Positions 1,593-19,254 of a stretch of 19,254 bases of DNA are shown here, in pieces. Position numbers and translations under genes: made by a program. Below the pieces are notes generated by a model. The model made no database searches. It saw only the letters and a list, made by a program, of their open reading frames with translations, and had not been told where the DNA came from. Numbering within the stretch: the first letter of the stretch is position 1; the number at the start of each line of letters is the position of its first letter. The DNA is from Candidatus Thorarchaeota archaeon (lineage in GTDB: Archaea; Asgardarchaeota; Thorarchaeia; Thorarchaeales; Thorarchaeaceae). The DNA is taken from NCBI GenBank assembly GCA_016839445.1, contig JAEOUG010000126.1:1-19254 (forward strand), read 5' to 3'.

Positions 1593-1607
1593 GTCACATC
1601 TTGTGAC
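1593..1607. promoter_or_regulatory. Perfect 6-3-6 inverted repeat GTCACA-tct-TGTGAC, candidate operator
   Basis: Intergenic, about 18 bp upstream of the TATA-like TTTAAATA at 1626-1633. Confidence 0.4.
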
Positions 1608-1625
1608 CCTCTTTCGTGATTCTCC

Positions 1626-1672
1626 TTTAAATATGGAAATTGGGGGATATTGTTTGGAAATAACTGAGGTGA
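1626..1672 (+). promoter_or_regulatory. TATA box (TTTAAATA 1626-1633) and RBS (GAGGTGA 1666-1672) of the bactofilin-like gene
   Basis: AT-rich island in a GC-richer background; the RBS ends 9 nt before ATG 1682. Confidence 0.65.
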
Positions 1673-1681
1673 AGGCCCAAA

Positions 1682-2923
1682 ATGGCTGAAGTCAAGAAAT
1701 ACAGAAACGAACAAAGACTCGAGCTCGGCACCATAGAAGGTGATGTTGAGCTCAAAGACTGCTATCGGATCTACCCACAACAGGGCGATGAGATAGTCAT
1801 CTCCGGGACACTAACCATTTCTGGAGAAACTACATTTGAGGGCTCATTGAGATGCGGAAAGCTCGTATCCAAGAGCAGAGACACAATAACGGTGATTGGA
1901 AATCTGCATGTCCAGAGGATTGTGGATGTGCCGCGGGGAAGTGTGAGCGTCGAGTTTGACATGACTGCTACCGAAATCCAGGTTGGCGCTTCCCTCAGGG
2001 TTGGCCGAAACCTTGAGTGCACATCAGGCAAGGCAGGAGCTTCAATCAAGGTTGTAGGAAATGCCAAGGCAAGCAGACTCACAGCTGGAGGAAGCGTCAA
2101 GATCGAGGGGACTGCAGATGTCGAACGCATCAACGGAGGCGGCTCGGTTGTTGTGAACGGAGTGATTCAGGCCGAGGAGTTCGATGCAGGCGGCTCTGGC
2201 AAATGCAGTGCTGGTACAATCGAGAAGGTCTCGGTTGGAGGTAGCTTCAAGGCCACCGAGGCAATAACGATCAGCGAGCTGGATGTTGGAGGGACTGCGA
2301 AAGTCGGTGCCGGCTCCAAGGTCGAGAGGGTTGATGTTGGAGGATCCTTCAAAGCTCTCGGTCAGTTGGAGTTCGGTGAAATTGATGTCGGCGGAACCGT
2401 CAAGATTGAAGGACCAGCAAAGGGCAAGACAATAGATGTCGGCGGTACAGTGAAGGTTGACGGAGACCTTGAGCTGGAAGGCGGTATCGAGGTCGGAGGG
2501 ACCGTCCGTGTCGACGGTGGCCTGAAATGCGGGGACAAGATCAAGGTCGGCGGGACTGTAAGGGTCGAAGACAGAATCGAAACTTACAGAATAATCGTTG
2601 GCGGAGAGATTGACGCCAAGTACATCAAGGCCACTGGTGGTTTCCGACTCGGAAGACGAGGAGAGGTCAGAGGCTTTGTCGAGTCCCCAGAGATACTCAT
2701 CCGAGAGAGGGCCAGAACGGACAGCCTCTACGGCGATGACATAAGAATCGAAGAGAGAGCAAGAGTGGGTGGTCTCTATGGCAAGAAGATCTACATCGAG
2801 AGGGACGCTGTGGTTGAAGGCGAGGTCCTGTACACGGACTCAATTGATTCAGAAGACGGCGTCGTCTTTCGCAGTGAGCCCAAGAGAGTCGACTCATTGC
2901 CAGACCCTGACAGTCTGAACTAG
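1682..2923 (+). CDS. Polymer-forming cytoskeletal (bactofilin/CcmA-like) beta-helix repeat protein, 413 aa
   Basis: Nearly the whole protein is 17-18-aa repeats such as I(D/E/K)VGG(T/S)V(K/R)(V/I)xG, ending in GDDIRIEERARVGGLYGKKIYIERDAVVEGEVLY, as in Bacillus YhbE/YhbF-type bactofilins. Strong RBS. Confidence 0.75.
   Translation: MAEVKKYRNEQRLELGTIEGDVELKDCYRIYPQQGDEIVISGTLTISGETTFEGSLRCGKLVSKSRDTITVIGNLHVQRIVDVPRGSVSVEFDMTATEIQVGASLRVGRNLECTSGKAGASIKVVGNAKASRLTAGGSVKIEGTADVERINGGGSVVVNGVIQAEEFDAGGSGKCSAGTIEKVSVGGSFKATEAITISELDVGGTAKVGAGSKVERVDVGGSFKALGQLEFGEIDVGGTVKIEGPAKGKTIDVGGTVKVDGDLELEGGIEVGGTVRVDGGLKCGDKIKVGGTVRVEDRIETYRIIVGGEIDAKYIKATGGFRLGRRGEVRGFVESPEILIRERARTDSLYGDDIRIEERARVGGLYGKKIYIERDAVVEGEVLYTDSIDSEDGVVFRSEPKRVDSLPDPDSLN
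2282..2605 (+). repeat. Coding tandem repeat (xVGG motif) with 51/54-nt period
   Basis: xVGG codon blocks start at 2282, 2333, 2384, 2435, 2489, 2543 and 2594 (spacings 51, 51, 51, 54, 54, 51). Confidence 0.9.
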
Positions 2924-2953
2924 AGCTTAGGCTGCCTTCACCTTCTAGATCAC

Positions 2954-2984
2954 GGGAACTCAGGACCGGCGGTCCTGGGTTCTC
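2954..2984 (+). terminator. 14-bp stem-loop between convergent genes (terminator or 3' stability element)
   Basis: GGGAACTCAGGACC-ggc-GGTCCTGGGTTCTC pairs fully on the + strand with two G-U wobbles. No U-tract follows. Confidence 0.5.
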
Positions 2985-2986
2985 AG

Positions 2987-3781
2987 TCACTCACGGCTTT
3001 TCCCCAGAACAAGTATCCTACGGCTGCTGTCCTTTGTGTATGGATGACGCTCAAAGTCACCGTATTCTGCGAGCAGCTCTAGACCTGCAACTCGCATGAG
3101 AAGGTCCGCCTCTCTGTTGAAGATTACCGCGGCGCCAGAGCTCACTTCAATTGTGTCCCTGACACTCTTTTCCTTGGTCCGTACAATGTATCTGAGGTCG
3201 ACCCTGATTAGCTGGCCAATTGGATCCATCTGCATCTCTCCGGTTCGGGACACAGACGAACCATCTGGAAGGTTGACAGGTCTATCTTCGAACCGGGCGT
3301 GCTCGTGTTGAAGTGCACCAGGAAACAGATCTAGAACGAAGACACCTTCGGAAGCCAAGTGCTCGCGCACGCATTGGAGTACCGAAATCTGTGATTCTGT
3401 TGTCATTGCGTGACCAAACGAGTTGGGAATGATGATTAGCCTGAACAACCTTCCGAGGTCGAACGCAGTCATGTCGCCTTCCACGATTTCCAGACGCGAT
3501 TGGACCTCAGACGGAAGACGCCTCATCTTCCCTCTTGCGCATTCCAGCATGGATGGAGAACTGTCCAGCGCGACTACCTCAAAGCCGGCTTCGGCCAATG
3601 GTATCGCAATTCGCCCTGTGCCTGCGGCCAAGTCCAAGATGGGGGAACCGTACTCGTTGGCAATCTCAAGGTAGAATGGTATGTCTGAGTTGTCGGCGAA
3701 GAGGTCATAGAACGCACCCACTCCTTCGTAGCCAGGACCCAATGAATCAGAGGATACGTCATGCCGAGGCAATGGACTCAC
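2987..3781 (-). CDS. Class I SAM-dependent methyltransferase
   Basis: Motif I ILDLAAGTGR, VVALDSSPSML, IVEGDMTAFDL, HLASEGVFVLD and C-terminal YGDF. Substrate unknown; start codon uncertain. Confidence 0.92.
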   Translation of the reverse strand: MSPLPRHDVSSDSLGPGYEGVGAFYDLFADNSDIPFYLEIANEYGSPILDLAAGTGRIAIPLAEAGFEVVALDSSPSMLECARGKMRRLPSEVQSRLEIVEGDMTAFDLGRLFRLIIIPNSFGHAMTTESQISVLQCVREHLASEGVFVLDLFPGALQHEHARFEDRPVNLPDGSSVSRTGEMQMDPIGQLIRVDLRYIVRTKEKSVRDTIEVSSGAAVIFNREADLLMRVAGLELLAEYGDFERHPYTKDSSRRILVLGKSRE

Positions 3782-3923
3782 GTCTGTTCTCTATGACAGA
3801 GCTTGCGCTAATCAAGTTGTCCAAGTATGTCAGATTAGTGAGGACTCTTCCCACAACGTTGCTTTTTATTCGTACGTGCGCTTTCGTTCCTCATAAGCTC
3901 AAATCGGGCACTGATGGCTCTGG

Positions 3924-6920: not shown

Positions 6921-6938
6921 CAGGCACATCGAGGCCAC

Positions 6939-8681
6939 TCACGGATTGAGTTCCGTTGCGTCTACTGCTATGCTGTGCTCAAGATGACGCCTGTAGCGTT
7001 CAGGAACAGGATAGTTGTGAAACGAATGAGCGAACCATCTGCCCATCATATCCTCAAGCTCTCTGTTGATTCTCTCCCAGAGCTGCTCTGATAGAGACGG
7101 GGACACAGACCAGACCTTCCCGTGTGGTGTTGCTCGAATCCTTCCCCTCTTCGAAACAACAACCCCCCTCTGCAGTGTGAGATATGCCTCTGAGAAGGCG
7201 CGTACAATTCTGTCCGGATAGTCTGAGATTCTGCTCTGCGTTGGGTCGATAGCGTAGACCGCCACGTCTGCATCAGCGCCGTGGCCGAGATGGCCTTTGG
7301 TCTCGTGGATGCCCAGAATCTTCGCAGGTGCTGCGCGAGTCGCAATTGCCACCTCTTGGAGAGTCCACTCTCGGTCAATGTCTGGCAGATTGGAGCGCTC
7401 TGAAGCGAGGGGATGAACCTTCTTGAGCCACTTCTGTCGTTGCTTGTGACTCATGAGCCATGACAGCACTAGCGGGTACTTCGTGAAGGGGCCAGCGTTG
7501 GGATGGTCTGTGCTCAACGCACATCTCCAGGGGTCTCTGATACTCAGCGCGAACTCCAGAGGGATTGCCCACTGGATCGAGTTCCCGGGGGAGTTCTCCC
7601 TGTACACATATGGCACTACTCCCGCGCCGCCTGGAAGCTCAACATCCATTGTGAGATGGGTCCACTTCCGCTTGGTCAATCCATGAAGATAGAACTCAAA
7701 CGGTCCGTCGGCGGTCATTGTTGTCGCATTGCCAAAGGTGATCTGACCCAGATCTACGCTGAAGTGATGGTTTCTGTTATAGTATTCTGCTAGTCTGAAA
7801 CCACCAGAGGAGAGATCCTTCCAATCATCGCTGTTCTCATCTACAGAGTCGTAGCTCTCAAATGACATATGTGTGAGGTGTGCAACTGAAGACCTCCCGT
7901 CATGACCCTTGATGCCCTCCAGTGACTCCAAGTGCCTAAGGGTCGTTTCGATATTGCCCACTCTACCAAGATTGACCGGGTGAAGATGGAGAGGATGCGG
8001 CAGGCCTAGCGATTCTACGGCCCTGCAGAGACCTACAGTGATCTGTCTGGGCGTTATGCCCCAGTGCGGGACTTCCACGTCAATGTCATTGATGTCTTCG
8101 CCGTGAGCCCACGCGTAGTTCCCACCGGGGTTCACAGCCTTCACACCAAGACCACCAACACTCCGAAGGGTCCAAGCAATGTAGGCTGCGAGACCGCTGA
8201 TATCGCCCTCTCTAACATAGTGGAAGGTGATCATGCTGTTGCAGAACATCGGAAGCATGCCCATGTCTAGATTGGGTATGTCCTCGAGCTCCTCCCAAGC
8301 GCTAAGCGCCTTCAGTGCTGGCAGTGCTGGTTCGATGACAGTGGTGTAGCCCATAAAGGAGTAGCGATAGCCCGTAACGTGAGAGGTCGGCATTGTATGT
8401 CCTACACCCCCACGAGTCTTGCTTGTCCTTGGTACAACATCATCACGATGATCCTCAGGACACATCGCACGACCAAAGCCAAGCTTACTCCCTACGATGT
8501 GCGAGTGTAGGTCCACCCCTCCTGGCATAACAACGAATCCCTTCAGGTCAATACTCCTTGCCCTCTCGCCTACAGACTCGGTGACCTTACCATCTGAGAT
8601 ACAGATGTCCATGATTTCTCCGTCTATACTGTTCAGTGGATCATAGACACGACCGTTCTGGAGGAGTATTTCTGCCGGCAT
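6939..8681 (-). CDS. fwdA: Formylmethanofuran dehydrogenase subunit A (amidohydrolase)
   Basis: NGRVYDPLN, GGVDLHSH, GRAMCPEDH, GVKAVNPGG (carboxy-Lys), HLHPVNLG, HLTH, TTMTADGP, STDHPNAGPF and KGHLGHGADADVAVY. The metal ligands look intact. Confidence 0.96.
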   Translation of the reverse strand: MPAEILLQNGRVYDPLNSIDGEIMDICISDGKVTESVGERARSIDLKGFVVMPGGVDLHSHIVGSKLGFGRAMCPEDHRDDVVPRTSKTRGGVGHTMPTSHVTGYRYSFMGYTTVIEPALPALKALSAWEELEDIPNLDMGMLPMFCNSMITFHYVREGDISGLAAYIAWTLRSVGGLGVKAVNPGGNYAWAHGEDINDIDVEVPHWGITPRQITVGLCRAVESLGLPHPLHLHPVNLGRVGNIETTLRHLESLEGIKGHDGRSSVAHLTHMSFESYDSVDENSDDWKDLSSGGFRLAEYYNRNHHFSVDLGQITFGNATTMTADGPFEFYLHGLTKRKWTHLTMDVELPGGAGVVPYVYRENSPGNSIQWAIPLEFALSIRDPWRCALSTDHPNAGPFTKYPLVLSWLMSHKQRQKWLKKVHPLASERSNLPDIDREWTLQEVAIATRAAPAKILGIHETKGHLGHGADADVAVYAIDPTQSRISDYPDRIVRAFSEAYLTLQRGVVVSKRGRIRATPHGKVWSVSPSLSEQLWERINRELEDMMGRWFAHSFHNYPVPERYRRHLEHSIAVDATELNP

Positions 8682-9977
8682 CTAGGATCCCGACCTCCGA
8701 ATCTCCTTGAGTATCAGCCTCAGGATGTCTCTATCTGATTTCACTCCCGGTGGTGGCTCAACACACTTCTTAAGATAGAGAGGGAGCCCATCCATCCGAG
8801 ATGCTGCACCATCGGCCTCAATACCTGACATAGCAGTGGGAATGTTCACAGCCGCCAGCAACGATGTCATATTCTGCTTCGGGTCCAGATTGATGATAGG
8901 AATCTTGCTCAGCTTACTCACAATGGAGCCGGGGAAGTGTGCCGCTGGGTCAGCAGCCACGTTCAGGATTGCGTCCACTTCGCCTCTTCGAATGAGATCA
9001 ATGGCAGTGTATTCACCGGGCTGGTAGCGAGGGTACGACCTGCTATAGTCGACAGCGAAGGGATAGCCAGTCTGCCAAGTGGAGGTCTTGTTTGCACCGG
9101 TGACGTTGTAGTGTCCCCGCATTGGCAGCATGGCCCATCTCGTATACTGGTTGAGGTCCTGAATCAGTCGAATGGCGGCATCGACGTTGCGGTGTTTGCC
9201 CCGCGATTGAGAAAGCCCTAGGCCGAAGAACAGAATGCCGTACTTCGTGGCTTTCATGGTCTGGACCATGTCATGGATACTCGCTATGGGCAGGCCTCCT
9301 ACCTGTTCTACGTCCAAGGTGTGTCCGCGCAGGAGCGCGCGCATAGTGCCAAGAATCTCCATGTCGTGGCCGGGTTCGATTTGGATGAACCGGTCGGCCA
9401 CTCCAGCGGTCACCGACTTCCGTATGTCAACAACCCAGAGCTCTCTGGTCTCGTTGTAGATGCCCGGGGCTCTGACAAAACGGTTCAAGTGGCGGGGGTG
9501 CGCGAACTGAGGGTTTGCACCCCAGTAGACTATAAGGTCTGCACGGTTGCGAACCTCACCAAGGGAACCATGAATCTCACCCGACTCCTGACTGCCTATC
9601 ACCGTCGGACCATGACATACTGAGGAGGTGTTGTCAACGACGCCTCCAATCTCCTCGGCAATGCGGTAAGCCTCCCGGTGCGCATCATTCTCGGTTGAAC
9701 TGAGACCATATACTAGAGGTCGCCTTGCTGATGCCAAGATGCCGGCTGCTACCTTGATTGCCTTCCCGAGATCGACAGACACGAACTCGCCGTCAATACG
9801 GACGGAGGGTGTGTTCATCCGGTCCTTCAAATGGTTGAGAAACTTGGACTTGCTTATGGCACAACCGTTCTCGTTCGCCACGATTCGGCCTTCCTCCAAC
9901 TCGAGGACTATGTCATCGCAGAGACACCCGCAGAAGGGACAGATGACATTCTCAAGCCGGCTCTTCGTCATACTCAC
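8682..9977 (-). CDS. fwdB: Formylmethanofuran dehydrogenase subunit B (W/Mo-bis-PGD catalytic subunit)
   Basis: CPFCGCLCDD..C [4Fe-4S] motif, SSVCHGP metal-ligand Cys/His, NRADLIVYWGANP..AHPRH and PMRGHYNV. Its stop abuts the fwdA ATG. Start is GTG 9977 (GTGA overlap with fwdD) or ATG 9971. Confidence 0.96.
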   Translation of the reverse strand: MSMTKSRLENVICPFCGCLCDDIVLELEEGRIVANENGCAISKSKFLNHLKDRMNTPSVRIDGEFVSVDLGKAIKVAAGILASARRPLVYGLSSTENDAHREAYRIAEEIGGVVDNTSSVCHGPTVIGSQESGEIHGSLGEVRNRADLIVYWGANPQFAHPRHLNRFVRAPGIYNETRELWVVDIRKSVTAGVADRFIQIEPGHDMEILGTMRALLRGHTLDVEQVGGLPIASIHDMVQTMKATKYGILFFGLGLSQSRGKHRNVDAAIRLIQDLNQYTRWAMLPMRGHYNVTGANKTSTWQTGYPFAVDYSRSYPRYQPGEYTAIDLIRRGEVDAILNVAADPAAHFPGSIVSKLSKIPIINLDPKQNMTSLLAAVNIPTAMSGIEADGAASRMDGLPLYLKKCVEPPPGVKSDRDILRLILKEIRRSGS

Positions 9978-10378
9978 GCTTCCCCTGAAGCCACTTGCAG
10001 TAGCAATTCCGACGGGCTCAGAATCTGCTCTCCCTGCGCCGCGAAGACTCTACACAGGAGACCCTTGAACTCAGGCATGCCGGACTCGCCAGTCTCAGGC
10101 CCCAGAACTGCGTTAGCATATGGACCACATGGTACGAAGACGATGCCGGCCGATCCCCTTCTGTCTAGTTTGGCCTTGACAACCACAGAGCCATACTCTG
10201 ACTCGAGGCGAACAAAGCCACTATCCCCAACTCCCAGAGCGTCCAGGCTTGCCTCATCCATCTCGCAAACAGCCACGGCATCCTGATACTCTCTTGTCAG
10301 TTTGCCTGACTCCATGGAACTTCCTTGTCTGAGAGTGCGCCCGGTTGTCAGATAGACCTGAACTCCATCATCATTCAT
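9974..10378 (-). CDS. fwdD: Formylmethanofuran dehydrogenase subunit D (molybdopterin dinucleotide-binding)
   Basis: LTTGRTLRQG..K..EYQDAVAVCEMD, GIVFVPCGPYAN and TGESGMPEFKG. ATG 10378 is preferred to the track start at 10444. Confidence 0.93.
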   Translation of the reverse strand: MNDDGVQVYLTTGRTLRQGSSMESGKLTREYQDAVAVCEMDEASLDALGVGDSGFVRLESEYGSVVVKAKLDRRGSAGIVFVPCGPYANAVLGPETGESGMPEFKGLLCRVFAAQGEQILSPSELLLQVASGEA

Positions 10379-10518
10379 TCGTCGTCGTTCTTCGAGTAGA
10401 GTAATCATGTTTAGAAGTCTTGTGACGAACCTAGCACGAACCACTTCGAAGCCTTTATCAATTAAGACTCTGGGGAGCGCCCAGAAAGTCTCAGTTTGAG
10501 CAGGCAGTTGAGAGACCC
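10379..10518. promoter_or_regulatory. Divergent promoter region between fwdDBA and the E1/E2 cluster
   Basis: 140-bp gap. CGAAGCC-TTTATCAATTAA (10447-10465) is BRE/TATA-like on +. A weaker TTCTAAAC lies on - at 10409-10416. Confidence 0.55.
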
Positions 10519-11487
10519 ATGGCAGTCGACAAGAAGACTCTCAAAGAACTATACACACGCACACTGAAAGTCCGGCTCTTCGAGGAAGAAGTATGGGACC
10601 TCTTCGGCCAGAATGTTGTCCCTGGCACTCTCCACCTATATTTGGGCCAAGAGGCAGTAGCAGCGGGTGTCACGGCGGCCCTCGAGGACGCAGATTGGAT
10701 ACAGAGCACTCACCGTGGCCACGGACATGTTGTGGCAAAGGGAGCCGACATGAACGCAGCTCTGGCCGAGCTTCTCGGGAAGAAGACAGGTTCCTGCAAG
10801 GGCAAGGGCGGGTCGATGCACATCACTCAGTTCGATGTGGGTGTTCTCGGTGCCACAGGGGTGGTTGCCTCTGGACTTCCCATTGCTGTAGGTGCGGCGC
10901 TCTCATGCCAGATGCGAGGCACGAAGGACGTGGTAGCCTGCTTCTTTGGGGATGGGGCAAGCAACAACGGCACGTTCGGTGAGTCTCTGAACATGTCAGC
11001 AATCTGGAAACTGCCGGTAATCTGGGTGGTCGAAAACAACTTCTACGCTATGGGTACGCCCATCAAACTGACCTGCCCGAGTCAGAGTATCGCACAAAGA
11101 GGCGAGGCCTATTGCATTCCAAGCAAGGTTGTGGACGGGAACAATGCCTTGGAAGTCTATGAGGCGACCGTAGAAGCCGTGAAGCGGGCCCGAGAAGGAG
11201 GAGGCCCCACTCTAATCGAGTGTCAGACCTACCGTATGAAAGGTCACTCACGGTTTGACCCCGCCAAGTACCGGCCGGAAGACGAGGCTGAGCGCTGGCT
11301 TAGTAGAGACGCAGTAGATATCATACGCAAGATCGCGATTGAGCAGGGAGCCATCACGGAGAAGGAGGCTGACAAGATACGAGAGAAGCTCCTGAAGGAA
11401 GTGAAGAAAGCCGGCAAATTCGCGTTGGAATCAGAGTACCCAGACCCAGAGGAAACTCTGGATGATGTATATGCGGAGGCAATCTAG
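10519..11487 (+). CDS. acoA: TPP-dependent acetoin/2-oxoacid dehydrogenase E1 alpha subunit (AcoA/PdhA family)
   Basis: GTLHLYLGQEA, STHRGHGH, GKGGSMH, TPP motif GDG-X26-NN and TYRMKGHS. THRGHGH is typical of the AcoA-like clade; the substrate is not certain. Confidence 0.9.
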   Translation: MAVDKKTLKELYTRTLKVRLFEEEVWDLFGQNVVPGTLHLYLGQEAVAAGVTAALEDADWIQSTHRGHGHVVAKGADMNAALAELLGKKTGSCKGKGGSMHITQFDVGVLGATGVVASGLPIAVGAALSCQMRGTKDVVACFFGDGASNNGTFGESLNMSAIWKLPVIWVVENNFYAMGTPIKLTCPSQSIAQRGEAYCIPSKVVDGNNALEVYEATVEAVKRAREGGGPTLIECQTYRMKGHSRFDPAKYRPEDEAERWLSRDAVDIIRKIAIEQGAITEKEADKIREKLLKEVKKAGKFALESEYPDPEETLDDVYAEAI

Positions 11488-11488
11488 A

Positions 11489-12463
11489 ATGGCGGAGATG
11501 ACTTATCGCGATGCCCTGAAGGAAGGACTCCGAGAGGAGATGGCGAGGGACGAACGCGTCTTCATCATGGGAGAGGATGTCGGCAAGAACTGGGGCGGTG
11601 CATTCAAGGTCACAAAAGGCTTAGCGGAGGAGTTCGGCGATGCCCGAGTCCGAGACACCCCAATCTCTGAGAACGCAATCGCGGGAGCAGCTGTAGGCGC
11701 AGCTATCACTGGCCTGATTCCGGTAGCCGAGATCATGTTCGGCGACCTGATCACGTTGGCTATGGACCAGGTTTGCAATCAGGCCGCAAAAATGCGCTAT
11801 ATGTTCGGAGGTCAGACGTCTGTCCCCCTAGTTCTGCGGACAGTCTTCGGCGGTGGCAAGAACATCGCATCTCATCACTCTCAGAGCCTAGAGGCTTGGT
11901 TCATGCACACACCCGGAATCAAGATTGCAGTACCTGCCTTTGCATCTGATGTGAAGGGGATGATCAAGACAGCAATCAGAGACCCCGATCCGGTCCTCTT
12001 CGCCGAGCACAAGCTTGTCTATGATAAGAAAGAGGAAGTACCAGAAGGGGACTACACCATCCCGTTCGGTGAAGCTAGGATTAGACGAGAGGGGACCGAT
12101 GTCACAGTTTGGGGAACCTTCTTCATGCTTCACAAGGCGCTCGATGTTGCCCAAGAGCTTCAGAAAGAGGGGATCAGCGTAGAGGTCATCGATCCGAGGA
12201 CCCTTGTGCCTCTTGATAAGAAGACCCTCATTGAATCCGTGAAGAAGACAGGGAGATTGGTTCTGGTCACTGAAGAAACCAAGACACTCGCCACCACAGC
12301 CGAAGTGGCGGCAATCGTTCAGGAGGAGGCATTCGACTGGCTCGACGCGCCCATAAAGAGAGTGAACGCACCAGACACTCCAGTGCCGTTCAGTCCACCC
12401 CTAGAGGACTACTTCATTCCTGATGAGAAGAGGATAGCCCAAGCCATTAGAGAGATTGTGTAG
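11489..12463 (+). CDS. acoB: Acetoin/2-oxoacid dehydrogenase E1 beta subunit
   Basis: GEDVG..GGAFKVTKGL, RVRDTPISE, AEIMFGD, DQVCNQAAKMRYMFGG, HHSQ and EVIDPRTLVPLD. ATG 11489 lies 1 nt after the E1 alpha stop. Confidence 0.92.
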   Translation: MAEMTYRDALKEGLREEMARDERVFIMGEDVGKNWGGAFKVTKGLAEEFGDARVRDTPISENAIAGAAVGAAITGLIPVAEIMFGDLITLAMDQVCNQAAKMRYMFGGQTSVPLVLRTVFGGGKNIASHHSQSLEAWFMHTPGIKIAVPAFASDVKGMIKTAIRDPDPVLFAEHKLVYDKKEEVPEGDYTIPFGEARIRREGTDVTVWGTFFMLHKALDVAQELQKEGISVEVIDPRTLVPLDKKTLIESVKKTGRLVLVTEETKTLATTAEVAAIVQEEAFDWLDAPIKRVNAPDTPVPFSPPLEDYFIPDEKRIAQAIREIV

Positions 12464-12472
12464 GTGAGTCTG

Positions 12473-13705
12473 ATGCCCACAGTGATGATAATGCAACGGA
12501 TGAGCGTCGCCATGGAATACGGCGTCATCCTCAAGTGGCTGAAGAAGGAGGGGGATGCCGTCAAGAAGGGCGACCCCGTAGTGGAGATCTTCGGTGAGAA
12601 GAACGAGTTCGAACTCGAAGCTCCAGACGATGGAATTCTCCTGAAGACGTTGTGCGACGTGAACGATGAGATACCCATCAGTGAGCCAATAGCAATCATC
12701 GGGAAGAAGGGCGACGAAATACCCGACATCAAGCCAAGGAAGATCAACGAAGCTGCTGCGCCAGCGGCTCCTGCAAAGACACCCACGGCACAGGCAGTCC
12801 CGGAAGTGAAGAGAGCTGCAGCGACATCGAAAGCGCCCGCCCCTGTTCTTGAAGGTGGCAGACTACGTGCATCTCCAAGAGCCAGGAAGACAGCGGCAGA
12901 GGCAGGAATTGACCTCTCTCAAGTCACAGGCACTGGGCCGGAAGGAAGGATCATCGAGAAGGATGTCCTCACTATTCAGAGCATGGCTCCCCAAGTGGCG
13001 ATTGATGATGACAGGAAGGTGCGTGGGATAGAGACCATGTCTCCGCTCAGGAGGACCATTGCGCGTCGAATGACCCAGAGTGCGCAGAACCCCCACATCA
13101 CCATGATCACTGAGATAGACATGACAGAGGTCGTTACGCTCCGGGAGGAGATCAACGATCAAGTGCAGAAGAAGCACGGCATTAGGATTTCCTTCAACGA
13201 TGTCATCGTCAAGGCGGTGGCCGATACACTGGAGAAGTTCCCCAAGTTCAACGCAACTCTCGCCGGAAATGATCTCCACATGTTTGACACCATAAACATC
13301 GGCGTTGCCATGGCCACTGACGAGGGTCTCATTGTTGTGACTGTTCGTGAAGCCAACAAGAAATCTATCACTGAGATCGCACTTGCCACAAAGGAACTGG
13401 GCAGGCGGGCCAAGGCCAATGAGCTCACTGCAGAGGAGATGACAGGGAGTACCTTCACAGTTTCCAATCTGGGCCCCTTCAATGTGGACCTCTTCATCCC
13501 GGTCATCAACCCGCCCGAAACGGCGATTCTAGCTCTTGGTCAGATAAAGAAGAAGCCCGTAGTTGTCGATGATAGCATTGCCATCCGGAGCACGATGATG
13601 GCCAGTTGTGCTGTCGACCACCGAATTCTTGATGGTGCACCAGCGGGCCAGTTCCTCCAGTCCTTGAAGGACACTCTTGAGAACCCGTTCATGATGAAAA
13701 TGTGA
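12473..13705 (+). CDS. acoC: Dihydrolipoamide acyltransferase E2 (one lipoyl domain, peripheral subunit-binding domain, catalytic domain)
   Basis: Lipoyl domain KWLKKEGDAVKKGDPVVEIFGEKN, Ala/Pro linker, PSBD ASPRARK..GTGPEGRIIEKDV, STFTVSNLG and catalytic DHRILDG. RBS GGTGA precedes ATG 12473. Confidence 0.92.
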   Translation: MPTVMIMQRMSVAMEYGVILKWLKKEGDAVKKGDPVVEIFGEKNEFELEAPDDGILLKTLCDVNDEIPISEPIAIIGKKGDEIPDIKPRKINEAAAPAAPAKTPTAQAVPEVKRAAATSKAPAPVLEGGRLRASPRARKTAAEAGIDLSQVTGTGPEGRIIEKDVLTIQSMAPQVAIDDDRKVRGIETMSPLRRTIARRMTQSAQNPHITMITEIDMTEVVTLREEINDQVQKKHGIRISFNDVIVKAVADTLEKFPKFNATLAGNDLHMFDTINIGVAMATDEGLIVVTVREANKKSITEIALATKELGRRAKANELTAEEMTGSTFTVSNLGPFNVDLFIPVINPPETAILALGQIKKKPVVVDDSIAIRSTMMASCAVDHRILDGAPAGQFLQSLKDTLENPFMMKM

Positions 13706-13771
13706 TTCGTCGTTGAACTGGACAGAAGAAAGGATTATCATCCTTCACGAGGAACGATTCCTGAGAAGAAC

Positions 13772-14095
13772 ATGATATCTAGCGGACGCTGTCCAAAGTG
13801 TGGCAGCACTCGAATCGCAGGCCCTCATAGACTCCATGGGGGCGACGCACATGTCAGGATTGACCTACCGGGATTCCCAACGGCTACATTGGAGGCATTC
13901 ACATGTGCTGAATGTGGCTACTCTGAGTTCTACGCCGACCGAGTGGGCCTCGACAACATCAGATCTGCGGGACGCTTCGTCCTCAACGCGCCGCCTCCTC
14001 GCGCAAGCCACGCTGTCAGCCATTGCCCAAACTGCAGAACACCAGTGAGAGAGGGCACGACGTTCTGTGGTGAGTGTGGGTATCCCCTCGGCTGA
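13772..14095 (+). CDS. Double zinc-ribbon protein
   Basis: CPKC..CAECGYSEFY (DUF2082-like ribbon) plus CPNC..FCGECG (zinc_ribbon_2-like). A purine tract and TTATCA lie about 31 nt upstream. Confidence 0.85.
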   Translation: MISSGRCPKCGSTRIAGPHRLHGGDAHVRIDLPGFPTATLEAFTCAECGYSEFYADRVGLDNIRSAGRFVLNAPPPRASHAVSHCPNCRTPVREGTTFCGECGYPLG

Positions 14096-14168
14096 CTATT
14101 AGGGCGCATTCGCGGAGGACGCGAAGTTAATGGTGCCCACTGCCTGAGGATTGGTCGGGGAGTGAAAC

Positions 14169-14663
14169 TTACCGCTTGAGGCTGCTGGCAGGTGGTCTGG
14201 AGAGTAGTTCAATTGCAGACCGTATTTCTCTCCCAAAATCGTCAAGCATCCGTCTTATGCTGGGGCCATCTTCACTCAAGGTTTTCTTGATGACATCTAG
14301 GTCGTCAAGGCTATCATGAAGTCTGTCTTCCATCGTGCGAATCATTAGGAATACTGGTGATGGAATCTCCTTGCGAATCCTATAGAGAATCCTCCTTCGG
14401 CCCCTTCCTGTCTGATTCAGATCGGTTTCTCCCTCGACTATACCAGCGGCTTCAAGCTGAGAGAGGATTAGGGTGACATTGCTGCGAGAGTAGCTTGTCG
14501 CTTCGGCCAGCTCTTCCAGACTCAGTCGTTCGCCGGTCGCGTATCGCTCTGCGTAGAGAACGGCTAGCAAGGAACCCGAGTTCCTCGAGAGACCTAGCCA
14601 TTCCACGAGCTTCTCAAAGAAATGAACCAGCGGTAGCATGTCCACAACCCTACTTGTCGTCAC
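14169..14663 (-). CDS. GbsR/MarR-family transcriptional regulator
   Basis: FFEKLVEWLGLSRNSGSLLAVLY..LSLEELAEATSYSRSNVTLILSQLEAAGIV..GRGRRRILY. GTG 14663 with upstream GAGAGGT is preferred (alternative ATG 14639). Confidence 0.85.
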   Translation of the reverse strand: MTTSRVVDMLPLVHFFEKLVEWLGLSRNSGSLLAVLYAERYATGERLSLEELAEATSYSRSNVTLILSQLEAAGIVEGETDLNQTGRGRRRILYRIRKEIPSPVFLMIRTMEDRLHDSLDDLDVIKKTLSEDGPSIRRMLDDFGREIRSAIELLSRPPASSLKR

Positions 14664-15008
14664 TTTGCCGACCTCTCTCTTCAATGGCAATTTTGACTGT
14701 AGAAAACGGCATAAAAGGTCATTTGTCGGGTGCATCCCCTCATCCATGCAGTACATCCTTCAGATAATCCTCGCGGAGAGGACGGACTGAGATGTTGACC
14801 TTAAATCGGATGGACTCGACATGAGGCTGCACGTATCATTCGTGCCAAGCCTCGAAAAACGACATCTGCTCCGACCCTCACTGTTGCTCTGAGGTCCCTC
14901 CGCTGGCGGCGAGCAACATTCATTCTGCCGCTGGCACCCTTCTCCATACAACAACCTAATGTGCCAGTGCTACCTGTGTGTTAGCTCGGCCCCTCAGAGG
15001 CGTGGCAT

Positions 15009-15812
15009 ATGCAGTGGCGTCTTCTCCTTGAGAAAGGAACTGATATCTACAGGAACCTAGCAGTAGATGAGGCTCTTGCTAGAGAAAGCGCGAAGAGGAC
15101 TGAGAAGACGAGCACTCTGAGATTCTGGATTGCTGACAGATCAGTAGTAATCGGCAGATTCCAGTGTGTCCACGAGGAAGTGAATCTGGCATTCTGCAGC
15201 TCGCAACGCATCTCCATAGCCAGAAGGTTCACAGGCGGTGGAGCAGTATACCATGACCTAGGCAACCTGAACTTCACTGTCTGTGGCGATCAGAAAGACC
15301 CGTCAGTATCACGGAACCTCATGGAGTTCTATAGCACTTTCATCGGAGCAGTCACCGAGAGTCTGAGGTCGCTCGGACCGGACGCGGAGTATGACGAAGA
15401 CCGGGCCTGCATCCGCGTACGCGGTCGGAAGGTTACTGGCACAGCCGGATGGATGAAGCAGGGGGTCTCGTTCCTTCATGGGACAATTCTCGTATCAGCA
15501 GATTTGGATACCCTAAGGGAGTCCTTGACTCCGGATGATGCCCAGCCGGCCTATCTCAGGGATAGCACCAGAATCAGATGCAAGAAGAGCAAACGCGACA
15601 CGGTAACGAACCTGAAGGATGAGATTGAAAGGACACCTTCAATGAAAGAGATCCAGACGGCAATTGTGACCGCGTTCCGAAAAGTCACAGGTGCGGACTT
15701 CGTCAAGGGCAATCTCACTGCACAAGAGAGAGATACTTCACAGGCTTTATATCAGAGCCGCTATTCCCAGTCCGACTGGAATCTAGGAACGCCACTTCTG
15801 GCAACACGATAA
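15009..15812 (+). CDS. lplA: Lipoate-protein ligase A family, catalytic domain only
   Basis: NLAVDEAL, VVIGRFQ, RRFTGGGAVYHDLGNLNF, GRKVTGTA (catalytic Lys), HGTIL, VTNL and Y..DWN. 267 aa with no accessory C-terminal domain. Confidence 0.9.
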   Translation: MQWRLLLEKGTDIYRNLAVDEALARESAKRTEKTSTLRFWIADRSVVIGRFQCVHEEVNLAFCSSQRISIARRFTGGGAVYHDLGNLNFTVCGDQKDPSVSRNLMEFYSTFIGAVTESLRSLGPDAEYDEDRACIRVRGRKVTGTAGWMKQGVSFLHGTILVSADLDTLRESLTPDDAQPAYLRDSTRIRCKKSKRDTVTNLKDEIERTPSMKEIQTAIVTAFRKVTGADFVKGNLTAQERDTSQALYQSRYSQSDWNLGTPLLATR

Positions 15813-15829
15813 GCTAGGTGAAGAAGACT

Positions 15830-16177
15830 ATGACTGATGATGTTGAGAAGACACTGAAGAGCTTCATGAAGCACTTCGGAGCTCTGAATCGTGACATACC
15901 AGATGCGAGGAACGCTTTTTCGGACCTGCAGAAGACCGTACACAAGGATGGAGCCCTTTCGGCCAAGTTCAAAGAGATAATCTGCATCGTGGCATCTGTG
16001 CTTTCTCCGTGCGAGGAGTGCATGGTCTATCACACTAAGCAGGCCATATCACTAGGAGCGACCAGAGAAGAGATCATGGAGGCCTGTTCAGTGGCCATTG
16101 TCATGGGTGGAGGTCCCGCAGCCTCTCACATCTCCACCGTTCAGGACTGTTTGGATGCATGGGCACCCAGAAAGTGA
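15830..16177 (+). CDS. Carboxymuconolactone decarboxylase / AhpD-like CxxC protein
   Basis: DGALSAKFKEIICIVASVLSPCEECMVYH..GATREEIMEA..MGGGP. RBS AGGTGA precedes ATG 15830, 17 nt after the lplA stop. Confidence 0.92.
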   Translation: MTDDVEKTLKSFMKHFGALNRDIPDARNAFSDLQKTVHKDGALSAKFKEIICIVASVLSPCEECMVYHTKQAISLGATREEIMEACSVAIVMGGGPAASHISTVQDCLDAWAPRK

Positions 16178-16179
16178 GG

Positions 16180-17223
16180 TCAACTCAAGTCAGTGAACAA
16201 GACCTTGATTGCTTGCTGCGTTTCCATTAGCTCAAATCCTCTCTCCCATTCGGAAAGAGCGATTCGATGAGTAATAAGTGGCGCTACGTCAATCTTCCGT
16301 GTGGACATCAATCGGAGCGTTGTCACCCAAGAAGATGGAAGGGTGCCCCACGTCCCCGACATAGTGAGTTCCTTCGTCACCATGGGATCCAGGTCTATGT
16401 TCAGAGACATTCCTCTTACGCCCAAGAGTGTAACATGCCCCGAGACCTTCACGAAGTCCAGGGCCTGAGTACAGGCAACACAGGCTCCAGATGCCTCGAT
16501 TACAACGTCAGCCCCGCGTCCATCGGTTTCATCCATAACCAGGCCTACAGGGTCAGCTTCAGCCTGAACATCAAGGGTGATGTCAACACCGGCCCTACGA
16601 GCTATGTCAAACCTCCATTGGTCGGAACTCACTCCTGTGAGGATGACCTTTCCTGCCCCCATGGCCTTGGCGACCTGCGCCGAGAGAAGCCCCATAGTTC
16701 CAGGTCCCTGTACGACGACAACGTCACCTGGTTGAATGGGCGATTTGTCAATGACCGAATGAACAACACACGCTGTGGGTTCAGCCAAAGCGGCCTCCTC
16801 CTCAGACACTCCCTTGGGAACCTTGTGAACGATATACTCGGGCACCACGATATACTTGGCAAAGGCCCCGTTTGCCAGGGAGGTCCCGAGGATTCTCTTG
16901 TCAGAGGCCGTACATCGGTTCATGTGTCCGGTCTTGCACTGGTAGCACTTCCCGCAGTATGCAGTTGCCGGTGACACAACCTGGTCGCCGACATTGACCG
17001 CAGAAACATCTCTCCCGACTTCGATGACTTCGCCCGAGTACTCATGACCAAGGATCACTGGAGGTGTGTAGAATGCCTGGTCGTGCTTGATGTGGACATC
17101 GGTGCCGCATATCCCTGCGGCACTGACCTCAATGAGTACTTGATCCTCTGCAGGTCTAGGATCTTCTACGTCCCTAAGCTCAAGATTGCCAGGACCCCGG
17201 GCGGTCTTCATCAATCCTCTCAA
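16180..17223 (-). CDS. Zn-dependent medium-chain dehydrogenase (sorbitol/threonine/butanediol dehydrogenase-like)
   Basis: GICGTDVH, LGHEYSG, structural Zn site CGKCYQC-X7-C, AALAEP and Rossmann GPGTMG. TTG start. Confidence 0.92.
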   Translation of the reverse strand: MRGLMKTARGPGNLELRDVEDPRPAEDQVLIEVSAAGICGTDVHIKHDQAFYTPPVILGHEYSGEVIEVGRDVSAVNVGDQVVSPATAYCGKCYQCKTGHMNRCTASDKRILGTSLANGAFAKYIVVPEYIVHKVPKGVSEEEAALAEPTACVVHSVIDKSPIQPGDVVVVQGPGTMGLLSAQVAKAMGAGKVILTGVSSDQWRFDIARRAGVDITLDVQAEADPVGLVMDETDGRGADVVIEASGACVACTQALDFVKVSGHVTLLGVRGMSLNIDLDPMVTKELTMSGTWGTLPSSWVTTLRLMSTRKIDVAPLITHRIALSEWERGFELMETQQAIKVLFTDLS

Positions 17224-17276
17224 GACTATGCCTCGACCGAGGCTGTGTCAGGTGGTTATAGAATCTTGTGGATAGG

Positions 17277-17549
17277 TCAGTGAGCCAGTATCTCATTGAA
17301 CCCGTTGTCTTCGTGGCCCTCATCGATCGACCGTACGCGATACGTCGTGCCGTGTTCATCTCTGATTCTACCAGCGGTGGTAGCACCAACGAACCGTTTT
17401 CTCACGGGGGCCTCCTTGCCAATCCAGAGGTACACCTTCTTGTTGAGTTCGTCAACAATGCAGAACACTGAGAAGGAATTCAGGTCGGACTTGGTGATGC
17501 TGACGCTGTTGGTTGTGCCGTCCTCATGCATCTCCAGTGCTTCGACCAT
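17277..17549 (-). CDS. Single-domain gelsolin-like protein (progelsolin type)
   Basis: DLNSFSVFCIVDELNKKVYLWIGKEA...A..IRDE...VRSIDEGHEDNGF follows the gelsolin-repeat consensus (LNS.d.FIlD...iyvW.G......v.eG.E...F). ATG 17549 is preferred. Confidence 0.85.
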   Translation of the reverse strand: MVEALEMHEDGTTNSVSITKSDLNSFSVFCIVDELNKKVYLWIGKEAPVRKRFVGATTAGRIRDEHGTTYRVRSIDEGHEDNGFNEILAH

Positions 17550-17575
17550 TGTAAAACCCACACTCGAGGGGTTAG

Positions 17576-17581
17576 TTATAA
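17576..17581 (-). promoter_or_regulatory. TATA box (TTATAA) of the gelsolin-like gene, probably a leaderless transcript
   Basis: Lies 27-32 nt upstream of ATG 17549; no clear RBS. Confidence 0.5.
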
Positions 17582-17657
17582 CATTGACGCATCATCGGCC
17601 CAGCGCATCTGCAAGAGCGCACGTGGGATGGTACGGAGTGGACCCAAACCGAGCTGG

Positions 17658-18017
17658 CTAGATTCTCTCAAACTTGGCCTTGACAGTTCCGCCGCAGTAG
17701 CCGCACTTGGCTTCCAGTGGACCTACCCAGTCTATGCCCTCATGACTCAGGGCAGCTCCGCAGGATGGGCACCTGTCTGGAAGTCTCACTGTCGACATCT
17801 GAGAGCCATCTGACCGCGTCTGTCCTCTGTACCGATCAGGAATCACAAAAGAGGGAGCCTCCATTGTGAACCCACGGCTAATCTCACGAGATATCGTCGA
17901 GCCGGCCCTACAGATTGTTACGCCGACAATGATGACAACCACTATTACGAAGACGAAGATTATCACGAACATGCTCTGGAAGAGCGAGAAGAATGAGTCG
18001 AAGAAGTCAAACTGCAC
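17658..18017 (-). CDS. Single-pass membrane protein with a C-terminal zinc ribbon
   Basis: TM MFVIIFVFVIVVVIIVGVTIC, then CPSCGA..CGYCG. GTG start with an upstream GTGAGG. Confidence 0.8.
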   Translation of the reverse strand: MQFDFFDSFFSLFQSMFVIIFVFVIVVVIIVGVTICRAGSTISREISRGFTMEAPSFVIPDRYRGQTRSDGSQMSTVRLPDRCPSCGAALSHEGIDWVGPLEAKCGYCGGTVKAKFERI

Positions 18018-18189
18018 CGCATAGCATCCTCACGCGATTCTTAAGGCCGTCCTCTTGCGAGCCCTTATTACCCTTTTCCTTGGCTTGAGACCTTCTCCAT
18101 GAAGTAGGGAGCCCCCCGAGTTCGGAACCTATATATCACGCTCCAGTTCCTGCCGTGCATGTAACTCAACTTGGAGGCCAAATGAAGAA

Positions 18190-18549
18190 ATGCAGATTCC
18201 CACTTTCCTCCTGAGGAAGTTGTACGTGAAAGGAAGCCTCGAGAATGTAGAGGACGGCTTCCACTTCAAGATCAAGAACTCAATCTCAAATGCCACCGCA
18301 CTGGCAATTGAGCCAATCAAGGTGAATGGTTCAGAGTATCCGCTCAACGCGACCGTCATCCGGTCAGGGGACACAGAGATCACAGGCGACCAGATAGGCG
18401 CTGACAACTCATTTCCCATCTCTGTGGGAGTTGAGATAGTCCTACATATCAAGGGCAGTCCTTTGCCTGAAGGTGAACACACTATCGACATCTCATTGAC
18501 AACGAAGGAAGTTGGCAAGCTGGCCTTCGACGTGAAGGATTCCATCTAG
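18190..18549 (+). CDS. Conserved hypothetical all-beta protein (IPxFLLxKLYVKGSLxN family)
   Basis: Clean ORF with TATA-like CTATATAT at 18129-18136. I recall this N-terminal motif from small proteins often loosely annotated as HMG-CoA reductase-associated; no reductase catalytic motifs are present. Confidence 0.75.
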   Translation: MQIPTFLLRKLYVKGSLENVEDGFHFKIKNSISNATALAIEPIKVNGSEYPLNATVIRSGDTEITGDQIGADNSFPISVGVEIVLHIKGSPLPEGEHTIDISLTTKEVGKLAFDVKDSI

Positions 18550-18559
18550 ACTCCTTGAG

Positions 18560-18700
18560 CTAGGATAGGCCGAGTATCCACACCAGAAGCAGAAGTGGAT
18601 AGACAAAGAGCATGAGCGTCAAGAGCACGCTCATAGCCAGTCCTAGCTTCCTCTCCACCAAGGGACAGACGGGCACCTCATCAGTTACTTCCTCAGACAT
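18560..18700 (-). CDS. Small tail-anchored membrane protein (46 aa; 50 aa if the start is at 18712)
   Basis: Not in the ORF track. Manual translation: MSEEVTDEVPVCPLVERKLGLAMSVLLTLMLFVYPLLLLVWILGLS*. It fills the intergenic gap without overlapping either neighbour. Confidence 0.65.
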   Translation of the reverse strand: MSEEVTDEVPVCPLVERKLGLAMSVLLTLMLFVYPLLLLVWILGLS

Positions 18701-18795
18701 CGTAGGTACCATGCTTCGGACTGCTGCTTATCATAGTTCTTGTTCGCCACAATAGTTTTGTGCGAAAGCAGGGAAGACGGGACTGGTGGAAGGAC

Positions 18796-19254
18796 ATGTA
18801 TGTTAAGATACGCCAAGATGGTGCTATCGGGATTGGCCGAGCCACAACAGGCAGCGAAGAGATCACTCTAGGTTATGGCGAAGCCCACATGATAGCCGCC
18901 GCGCTGGACAAGCTGGCCCAAACGGCCAGGTCCTACAAACAGACGTACCACAAGACTACCGATGTCGGGAGTGGGAACAGAATCGACTTCGAGCGTGCCG
19001 ATGATGGTACTATACTGGTCTCGGGCGATAGGCAGACCTACATCTGTACTGAACAGGAGGTTCGTGCCCTCTCAGAGAGACTCAAGAACCTGCCTCCAGT
19101 CAACGTAACCACGCCTTCAGACTACGTCAAGAAGATTACACCGAGAAACGGATTGTGCCTGCAGATCGTCAATGGAGGCCCATCCTTCTTGGTACGATTG
19201 CCAGAGGCAGCTATCCTGAAGACCGCCGTGCTTAGCAGCATTGACTCGAAGTAC
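18796..19254 (+). CDS. Hypothetical protein with repeated beta-beta-beta-alpha units; runs off the right edge
   Basis: Not in the ORF track. 153 open codons from ATG 18796: MYVKIRQDGAIGIGRATTGSEEITLGYGEAHMIAAALDKLAQTARSY...SSIDSKY. Purine-rich GGTGGAAGGA upstream. Confidence 0.85.
   Translation, partial: MYVKIRQDGAIGIGRATTGSEEITLGYGEAHMIAAALDKLAQTARSYKQTYHKTTDVGSGNRIDFERADDGTILVSGDRQTYICTEQEVRALSERLKNLPPVNVTTPSDYVKKITPRNGLCLQIVNGGPSFLVRLPEAAILKTAVLSSIDSKY

Follow-up and report, generated by a model that had tools for sequence, protein, structure and literature searches.

A conserved Asgard operon that combines 2-oxoacid dehydrogenase genes, a lipoate ligase gene and a gene for a small AhpD-like CxxC protein

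The window analyzed here (the whole stretch of DNA that was examined) comprises 19,254 nucleotides, positions 1 to 19,254 of the forward strand of contig JAEOUG010000126.1 from a Candidatus Thorarchaeota archaeon (GenBank assembly GCA_016839445.1). It is contig C98 of an assembly of 2.91 Mb in 190 contigs that is 89.8% complete and 6.45% contaminated. Between positions 10519 and 16177 the window encodes the E1 alpha, E1 beta and E2 components of a 2-oxoacid dehydrogenase complex (OADHC), a lipoate ligase (LplA) and a small CxxC protein of the carboxymuconolactone decarboxylase (CMD)/AhpD family, which we call the AhpD-like protein. These genes, and those lying among or next to them, are the following:

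10519-11487, + strand: E1 alpha subunit (E1a), thiamine pyrophosphate-dependent, pyruvate dehydrogenase (PDH)/acetoin type; PF00676 (E1_dh) 268.8 bits; TIGR03182 351.4 bits, under the cut-off of 393.85
11462-12463, + strand: E1 beta subunit (E1b); PF02779 (Transket_pyr) and PF02780 (Transketolase_C); NF006667 379.5 bits, above the cut-off of 321
12464-13705, + strand: E2 dihydrolipoyl acyltransferase; PF00364 (Biotin_lipoyl), PF02817 (E3_binding) and PF00198 (2-oxoacid_dh)
13772-14095, + strand: Zn-ribbon protein, between E2 and LplA; Zn_Ribbon_1/DZR matches; absent from the original prediction
14169-14756, - strand: winged helix-turn-helix (wHTH) regulator, divergent from lplA; MarR_2 24.3 bits, below the cut-off of 27; weak HTH matches and no NCBIfam match
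15009-15812, + strand: LplA-type lipoate/octanoate-protein ligase or transferase, catalytic domain only; PF21948 (LplA-B_cat) 158 bits; TIGR00545 173.4 bits, under the cut-off of 280
15818-16177, + strand: predicted CMD/AhpD-like thiol-disulfide oxidoreductase; PF02627 70.4 bits (cut-off 23); TIGR00778 44.1 bits (cut-off 27.8)
16180-17223, - strand: Zn-dependent medium-chain alcohol dehydrogenase (Zn-ADH), threonine/butanediol-dehydrogenase-like, convergent on the AhpD-like gene; ADH_N and ADH_zinc_N; TIGR00692 267.3 bits, below cut-off; likewise absent from the original prediction

The original prediction had described a complete E1a/E1b/E2 cluster, a lipoate ligase gene about 1.3 kb downstream and, 17 nt later, an AhpD-like gene with a CxxCxxxH motif. 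This observation was confirmed, because the open reading frames (ORFs), the domain matches and the motif (CEECMVYH) agree with that description; lplA begins 1.3 kb past E2. A wHTH gene does diverge from lplA as had been stated, but its GbsR/MarR label could not be established, because the HTH matches are weak and no NCBIfam model matched. Together, E1a, E1b and an E2 with a lipoyl-lysine, a peripheral subunit-binding domain (PSBD) and the catalytic DHR motif make up a 2-oxoacid dehydrogenase. In E2, Lys46 (the lipoyl site) and Asp385-His386-Arg387 (DHR) were invariant across 14 aligned E2s, and this is the sole E2 in the assembly. As to the equivalog models, E1a scored under the TIGR03182 cut-off and E2 under all equivalog cut-offs, and E1b passed a subfamily model alone.

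The AhpD-like protein has a length of 115-119 amino acids and contains SPCEECMVYH. Its probable start is the ATG at 15830, 17 nt past the lplA stop codon, where both its homologues and the profile match begin. Membership of the CMD/AhpD family is indicated by PF02627 and TIGR00778 (AhpD core), both above cut-off, and no other CMD-family gene occurs in the assembly. In an alignment of 25 homologues (33-89% identical to this protein), Cys65, Cys68 and His72 were invariant and Glu53 was found in at least 90%. The profile built from this alignment matched the structures 5dik (E 3e-36) and 7y4r (E 1e-26), and also Thermotoga TM1620. The match to Mycobacterium tuberculosis AhpD (1gu9, 1me5) had E values of 5e-5 to 7e-5 over about 50 residues, with profile positions 49-98 aligned with residues 118-167; in this register E53, C65, C68 and H72 correspond to Glu118, Cys130, Cys133 and His137 of that protein.

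The AlphaFold2 model of the AhpD-like protein (pLDDT 93.1) showed six helices in an all-alpha AhpD-like fold, and its best Foldseek match was 5dik_A (TM 0.87/0.92), followed by TM1620 and RclX. A mycobacterial-type AhpD, with about 177 amino acids and an adjacent ahpC gene, was not found here: the protein has 119 residues and the window contains no AhpC/TSA gene. The peroxiredoxin candidates of the genome are six AhpC/TSA matches, all on contigs other than that of the operon. Co-folding of the AhpD-like protein (alignment of 25 rows) and residues 1-88 of E2, the lipoyl domain (14 rows), yielded a score of 0.01 and a mark of 0.32; run without controls, it carries no weight either way. The identification as a true gamma-carboxymuconolactone decarboxylase was rejected, in our judgement, on the CxxCxxxH signature and the gene neighborhood.

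In each of 18 Thorarchaeota loci compared, from a species-level genome collection, LplA immediately precedes the AhpD-like gene, and the Zn-ADH gene adjoins the latter in all 18 as well. E1/E2 genes were visible in 13 loci; the remaining five offer at most 2.5 kb of upstream sequence. Many relatives (e.g., G001) have the contiguous order E1a-E1b-E2-LplA-AhpD. A homologue of the Zn-ribbon gene was present in six of the 18 loci and one of the wHTH regulator in a single locus (L070), so both are variable inserts outside the conserved core. The same order was found in a Heimdall-labelled metagenome-assembled genome (MAG; L084, 53% identity) and in a closed Atabeyarchaeia genome (54%), and in G033 the AhpD-like gene directly follows E2.

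An AhpD orthologue (E <= 1e-25) was present in 30 of 151 sampled Asgard genomes and was confined to four families (24/26, 3/3, 1/1 and 1/1). In 23 further Asgard loci, the AhpD-like gene followed LplA in 22 and E2 in one. The 22 operon-linked Asgard AhpD-like proteins formed one clade (SH-like approximate likelihood ratio test, SH-aLRT, 99) in a quick maximum-likelihood tree of 83 sequences. The gene order is retained in the four families among AhpD-like sequences that are merely 48-55% identical, with gaps of 21-344 nt between LplA and AhpD. The arrangement, seen in all 18 fetched Thorarchaeota loci and in three other Asgard families, is far beyond chance. The co-occurrence of lplA, AhpD and E2, which the original prediction had proposed to examine across archaea, is thus conserved across four Asgard families, and in some distant archaea and bacteria the AhpD-like gene stands beside E2, E3, LplA or LipA.

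The two partners also occur in a single polypeptide. A search among longer proteins with one protein as query (351 candidates) gave no fusion, which is weak evidence; a profile search of 400 Asgard genomes later found three CMD matches inside open frames of 548-568 amino acids. These ORFs, from two further Asgard families, have 563 (G274), 550 (G272) and 548 (G273) residues, the Pfam architecture Biotin_lipoyl - E3_binding - 2-oxoacid_dh - CMD, no internal stops, and a retained CESCMKWH motif. Their CMD part is 41-43% identical to the AhpD-like protein and their E2 part 36-39% identical to the operon E2. The gene for lipoyl synthase (LipA) directly follows the fusion gene in two of the three genomes and is nearby in the third. 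The fusions are like the Thorarchaeota operon in that the same two parts are joined and both the PSBD and CxxCxxxH are retained; they differ in being a single chain followed by LipA, whereas the operon has separate genes with LplA between them. The natural E2-CMD fusion is the strongest computational evidence that the CMD domain would act on or with E2.

Outside Asgard, the comparison covered the 80 best of the 402 loci detected. A lipoyl-system gene (E2, true dihydrolipoamide dehydrogenase (E3), LplA or LipA) was on the same strand within 1.5 kb in seven of 61 distant loci (31-51% identity). Desulfurella has the order E1ab-E1ab-glyoxalase-E2-AhpD-LplA, where the AhpD-like gene stands between E2 and LplA with junctions that overlap or measure 2 nt; in this cluster (L085:764-7793), two successive E1a-E1b pairs and a glyoxalase-family gene precede E2, and the LplA gene encodes the catalytic domain. 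Aliiroseovarius has E1a-E1b-E2-AhpD and an Acetobacteraceae MAG has E2-AhpD. In two Bipolaricaulota loci and one Desulfurococcales locus, the AhpD-like gene adjoins a true E3 gene (482.8 and 468.4 bits with TIGR01350, whose cut-off is 408.8). The seventh, in an uncultured archaeon (L117), combines GcvH, a flavoprotein like coenzyme A disulfide reductase (CoADR), AhpD, LipA, LplA and LplB; it was kept in the count because LipA, LplA, LplB and GcvH are present, though the flavoprotein is CoADR-like. This cluster (L117:6700-10271) is tight, with overlapping junctions, and its AhpD-like gene overlaps LipA and precedes LplA and LplB. Its GcvH is a putative one, a tblastn match that falls inside the flavoprotein ORF or overlaps it, about 1.2 kb upstream of the AhpD-like gene.

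Ancylobacter would be an eighth locus, with E1a/E1b 2-3 kb away. Past 4 kb there was one unrelated match, an LplA on the opposite strand (L097). Locus L086 was removed from the lipoyl-linked count, as its tblastn "E3" neighbor proved to be a CoADR-type enzyme. A peroxiredoxin gene was found anywhere in the flanks of three of the 61 distant loci. The lipoyl-linked loci are scattered on the tree: five fall in a weakly supported group of 12 beside the Asgard clade, and the others elsewhere.

The original prediction had noted that no E3 gene lies in the window. This is correct, and the search of the whole assembly, 89.8% complete and in 190 contigs, was also empty: the TIGR01350 profile gave 25 weak matches, none above cut-off, and tblastn with the E3s of three relatives gave nothing at E 1e-10. 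The best TIGR01350 match (123.5 bits, contig C136) is a CoADR/NADH oxidase (Nox)-type protein with a single active-site Cys and no His-Glu dyad, and it is the sole protein with the dimerisation domain. The remaining flavin adenine dinucleotide (FAD) enzymes are ferredoxin-reductase-like, CoADR-like and thioredoxin reductase (TrxR)-like.

A full-length E3-type gene was found elsewhere in the genome in 19 of 24 same-genus genomes. The E3-type genes of the relatives carry the disulfide motif GGxCLNxGCIPxK and the HxHPxxxE dyad; with NF004947 (cut-off 592), that of G001 scored 574 bits and that of the closed Atabeyarchaeia genome 730 bits. In a closed Thorarchaeota chromosome the E3-type gene lies 2.4 Mb from the operon. 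Family-wide, an E3-type match (E <= 1e-100) was present in 51 of 81 genomes and in 18 of the 23 high-quality ones. All eight further Asgard genomes with the operon or a fusion have an E3-type gene, four of them above the TIGR01350 cut-off, including all three fusion genomes. None of the 19 Asgard AhpD-type loci showed an E3-type gene in the fetched flanks (up to 8 kb). The proposal that the linkage exists because E3 is missing was therefore not borne out, since most relatives, including two with closed genomes and all three fusion genomes, have E3-type genes; the AhpD-like gene and E3 coexist, so the former is not a replacement for a missing E3. What did hold in the relatives is the accompanying caveat that the retained PSBD is compatible with an E3 encoded elsewhere.

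Classical E1a-E1b-E2-E3 operons without an AhpD-like gene also occur in the phylum (G006:C76, G039:C10). The first (L058, G006:C76:1-8726) occupies an 8.7-kb contig of a same-genus genome, has a true E3 (482 bits) and is found besides an AhpD-type operon; a second complex, a transferred one and a contaminant are all conceivable.

In two genomes of other genera that contain the operon, G049 (95% complete) and G101 (97%), no E3-type gene was matched at E 1e-25; two of about 22 is near the expectation from incompleteness alone. The absence of E3 as a feature of the clade was considered and rejected: the other E3-less same-genus genomes (G008, G010, G017, G018 and G022) are 71-88% complete. G010, G017 and G018 also lack the thiolase gene that neighbors E3 in relatives; G008 and G022 have it, and no E3 appears in the sequence downstream, which at about 1.5 kb and 0.45 kb is too short for a decision. 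Five genomes of other genera gave no match to the thiolase query, and the synteny comparison therefore does not reach G049 and G101. Tandem E3-type duplicates were seen in three same-genus genomes (G020:C123, G021:C1 and G002:C5), and in G015, G016 and G023 a contig end truncates the E3 gene, which indicates that E3 assembles poorly.

In the relatives, the E3 locus has thrS on one strand, followed divergently by thiolase, E3 and in some cases a methyltransferase gene, and then a convergent gene of 127 amino acids. The genes thrS, thiolase and E3 are all together in five relatives, and four more loci have a partial order. In the genome studied here, in the middle of contig C112, a spacer of 136 bp separates thrS from the methyltransferase gene, next to which comes the 127-amino-acid gene, with neither thiolase nor E3 between. 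The thiolase-E3 pair is thus gone from between thrS and the 207-amino-acid methyltransferase gene (G000:C112:13720-16806, L152), in comparison with at least five same-genus genomes. The single thiolase orthologue is in the middle of contig C164 (16162-17376, L153), with other neighbors and no E3; a 237-amino-acid ORF without a Pfam match begins 4 nt after it.

The thrS/methyltransferase junction is covered, at 95-100% identity, by overlapping contigs that come from four further public runs, each of a different study. One piece starts 39 nt inside thrS and spans the entire spacer, while others begin in the spacer and reach into the methyltransferase gene; no one contig piece has 31 or more letters in both junction genes. 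The tiling by four runs indicates that the rearrangement is real and that E3 is not at its ancestral place. The genome retains GcvP and two GcvH genes, which also require an L-protein. In our judgement, a true absence of E3 from this species and its presence in the missing part are about equally probable.

The operon ligase has the LplA/LipB catalytic domain, and the Lip_prot_lig_C domain is in neither this gene nor its neighbors. The LplB domains of the genome are elsewhere, on contigs C190 and C81. The first of these contigs has a cluster of a radical-SAM fragment, LplA and LplB (G000:C190:1335-3081, L064), and the second a LplA-LplB fusion of 427 amino acids (G000:C81:285-1568, L065). With these two further lipoate-ligase systems, the operon ligase is a third paralogue that lacks LplB, and it may be a LipM- or LipL-type transferase. 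The AhpD-like gene as a substitute for the absent LplB was rejected, as its fold is all-helical and LplB domains exist elsewhere in the genome.

We consider it moderately probable, from the genes, motifs, fold, gene order, fusions and E3 distribution described above, that this conserved Asgard operon encodes a PDH/acetoin-type E1ab-E2 with its own LplA-type ligase and an AhpD-like CxxC protein whose substrate would be the lipoyl arm of E2, forming a lipoyl-dependent antioxidant or disulfide-reducing branch beside E3. What we infer from these observations is the chemistry, which way the electrons flow and what accepts them. E1, with a 2-oxoacid or acetoin, would reduce the lipoyl arm of E2, as could E3 with NADH where E3 is present. 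By dithiol-disulfide exchange, the dihydrolipoyl arm would then reduce the disulfide that Cys65 and Cys68 form in the AhpD-like protein, and the reduced protein would hand on the electrons, either to a peroxiredoxin, to a peroxide or to some other disulfide. The complex would thereby gain a side branch that works beside E3 and does not replace it. The original prediction had the AhpD-like protein oxidizing the lipoyl arm in an E3-independent relay; the functional tie to the lipoyl system is supported by the gene order, the fusions and the distant loci, but E3-independence as the reason for it is not.

Several findings count against a lipoyl-dependent branch of this kind. No peroxiredoxin gene is in or near the operon, and the M. 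tuberculosis AhpD is a protein of 177 amino acids and a distant relative (E 5e-5). The direct neighbor of the AhpD-like gene in the Asgard operons is LplA and not E2, and one distant cluster is centered on LipA, LplA and LplB; both arrangements would also fit cofactor maturation. In addition, for 53 of the 61 distant homologues the flanks that were fetched contain no gene of the lipoyl system, so the association is recurrent, not universal, and the subfamily is not uniformly lipoyl-linked.

Cofactor maturation or repair is a serious rival, even if we hold it to be rather unlikely. The AhpD-like protein would here set or restore the redox state of new (dihydro)lipoyl groups, or resolve mixed disulfides or over-oxidised arms, with no antioxidant branch. 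Such a role would suit a gene that directly follows LplA in the Asgard operons, that stands between E2 and LplA in Desulfurella and overlaps LipA ahead of LplA and LplB in L117; LipA directly after two of the three fusions and a ligase that is a third, LplB-less paralogue point the same way. The fusion partner of the CMD domain, however, is E2 and neither LplA nor LipA; in G033, L118 and L136, E2 is followed by AhpD and the sequence fetched contains no ligase; at three distant loci the AhpD-like gene is paired with a true E3 alone; and E3, where present, already interconverts both lipoyl redox states. A generic antioxidant CMD protein with no specific lipoyl partner, placed in the operon by historical co-transfer, seems very improbable to us. 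It would account for the 53 distant homologues without a lipoyl-system neighbor, and RclX, the closest studied small CMD protein in the literature covered, acts in defence against HOCl and HOSCN with no lipoyl link mentioned in the portion of the source consulted (PMC7950407). Such a protein would hardly be expected to keep its gene order at 48-55% identity in four Asgard families, to be fused in frame to E2, to share the same neighborhood in unrelated lineages and to be the sole CMD gene in the genome.

It is also improbable, in our estimate, that in this species E3 was lost and the AhpD-like protein became the sole re-oxidant of dihydrolipoyl-E2, and perhaps of dihydrolipoyl-GcvH, passing electrons to peroxiredoxins or a CoADR/Nox-type flavoprotein. 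The assembly, where no class-I flavoprotein disulfide reductase was found and the other FAD enzymes are CoADR/Nox-, ferredoxin-reductase- and TrxR-like, is consistent with this, as are the conserved thrS-thiolase-E3 locus without its E3, the thiolase relocated without E3 and the junction tiled by four other runs. G049 and G101 carry the operon with no E3-type match, and a CoADR-like flavoprotein is paired with the AhpD-like gene in two distant loci. Yet the assembly is just 89.8% complete, E3 assembles poorly in relatives (contig ends, tandem copies), no single contig bridges both junction genes with 31 or more letters, and the retained GcvP and two GcvH need an L-protein. The AhpD linkage is equally conserved where E3 is present, and E2 retains its PSBD. 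On redox stoichiometry, each turnover would need one oxidant equivalent, so the relay is unlikely as the sole catabolic outlet; one peroxide or disulfide per turnover could not carry the catabolic flux of an organism of anoxic sediment. We give as little credence to the broader proposal that small AhpD-type CxxC proteins are a widespread, hard-wired redox partner of the lipoyl arm, with the relay here running without any E3 through peroxiredoxins or a CoADR/Nox-type flavoprotein as a two-protein E3 substitute.

The reference on the reduction of AhpD by lipoylated E2 is said to be Bryk et al. 2002. The passages of PMC8945050 that we used state that AhpD of M. tuberculosis and Corynebacterium glutamicum is reduced by dihydrolipoyl-E2, and that Ohr and OsmC are also reduced by lipoylated proteins. 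The proposed branch is like the NADH-dependent AhpC-AhpD-DlaT(SucB)-Lpd peroxidase relay of these two bacteria in its AhpD-family CxxC protein, in the Glu...CxxCxxxH spacing and in the coexistence of E3; electron transfer from E2 was demonstrated in that relay, and here it would be expected by analogy. It is unlike the mycobacterial relay in that the AhpD-like protein is a single-domain, small hexamer-type CMD protein of 115-119 amino acids (E 5e-5 to the mycobacterial protein versus 3e-36 to 5dik), its gene is found with E1ab-E2-LplA or fused to E2 and not with ahpC, no peroxiredoxin is nearby, and the host is archaeal and mostly anaerobic.

In size, six-helix fold and CxxC, the protein resembles Legionella lpg0406 (5dik), Thermotoga TM1620 (1p8c, 1vke) and Pseudomonas RclX (7y4r). 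Unlike the AhpD-like protein, these three have no tie to lipoyl enzymes in the literature covered, and RclX is regulated by RclR, according to the part of PMC7950407 consulted. The branch proposed here would share with Ohr and OsmC the use of lipoylated E2 as the electron source for peroxide reduction (for Ohr/OsmC, same passages of PMC8945050); their fold is unrelated, and they are themselves peroxidases, whereas the CxxC protein may serve as adaptor, as peroxidase or in both roles. With the classical archaeal and bacterial E1a-E1b-E2-E3 OADHC operon, the operon has in common the genes for E1a, E1b and E2, the order in which they stand and the domains of E2; it differs in having LplA and the AhpD-like gene after E2 in place of E3.

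Full-text searches of the literature did not bring up any description of CMD/AhpD genes within lipoate or OADHC clusters; the supplementary tables of PMC10332631 and PMC3904984 were outside the scope of these searches. The main text of PMC10332631 contains neither "AhpD" nor "carboxymuconolactone". A small CMD subfamily hard-wired to OADHC/lipoate genes, through an operon in four Asgard families, through fusion in two others and in scattered cases, thus appears to be undescribed. For the chemistry, the actinobacterial AhpD relay is a known precedent, and the fold is that of known small CMD proteins.

Archaeal OADHCs and lipoylation track aerobiosis, as stated in the portion of PMC3904984 that was consulted. 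An Asgard lineage of anoxic sediments with a lipoyl complex wired to a thiol-redox protein suggests how lipoyl enzymes may be protected or repurposed at low oxygen, a point of relevance to the metabolism that is reconstructed for eukaryotes' archaeal relatives. Both the operon and the naturally occurring fusions offer a directly testable electron route from lipoyl to CxxC, which so far has been demonstrated biochemically in actinobacteria alone. For a small CMD subfamily with solved structures, the gene neighborhoods nominate protein-bound dihydrolipoate as a candidate reductant.

Directly upstream of E1a, and divergently oriented, the window carries formylmethanofuran dehydrogenase genes (6939-10444, - strand):

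6939-8681, - strand: formylmethanofuran dehydrogenase subunit A; TIGR03121 660 bits, above cut-off
8682-9977, - strand: formylmethanofuran dehydrogenase subunit B; TIGR03129 518 bits, above cut-off
9974-10444, - strand: fwdD-like formylmethanofuran dehydrogenase gene; 99 bits, below cut-off

Two other genes of the window were recorded. One encodes a bactofilin-domain protein of 413 amino acids (1682-2923, + strand; PF04519, 42.7 bits; no NCBIfam match), here in an Asgard genome. The other (3924-6920, + strand) encodes a protein of 998 amino acids with an fn3 domain and a weak match to DUF4350.

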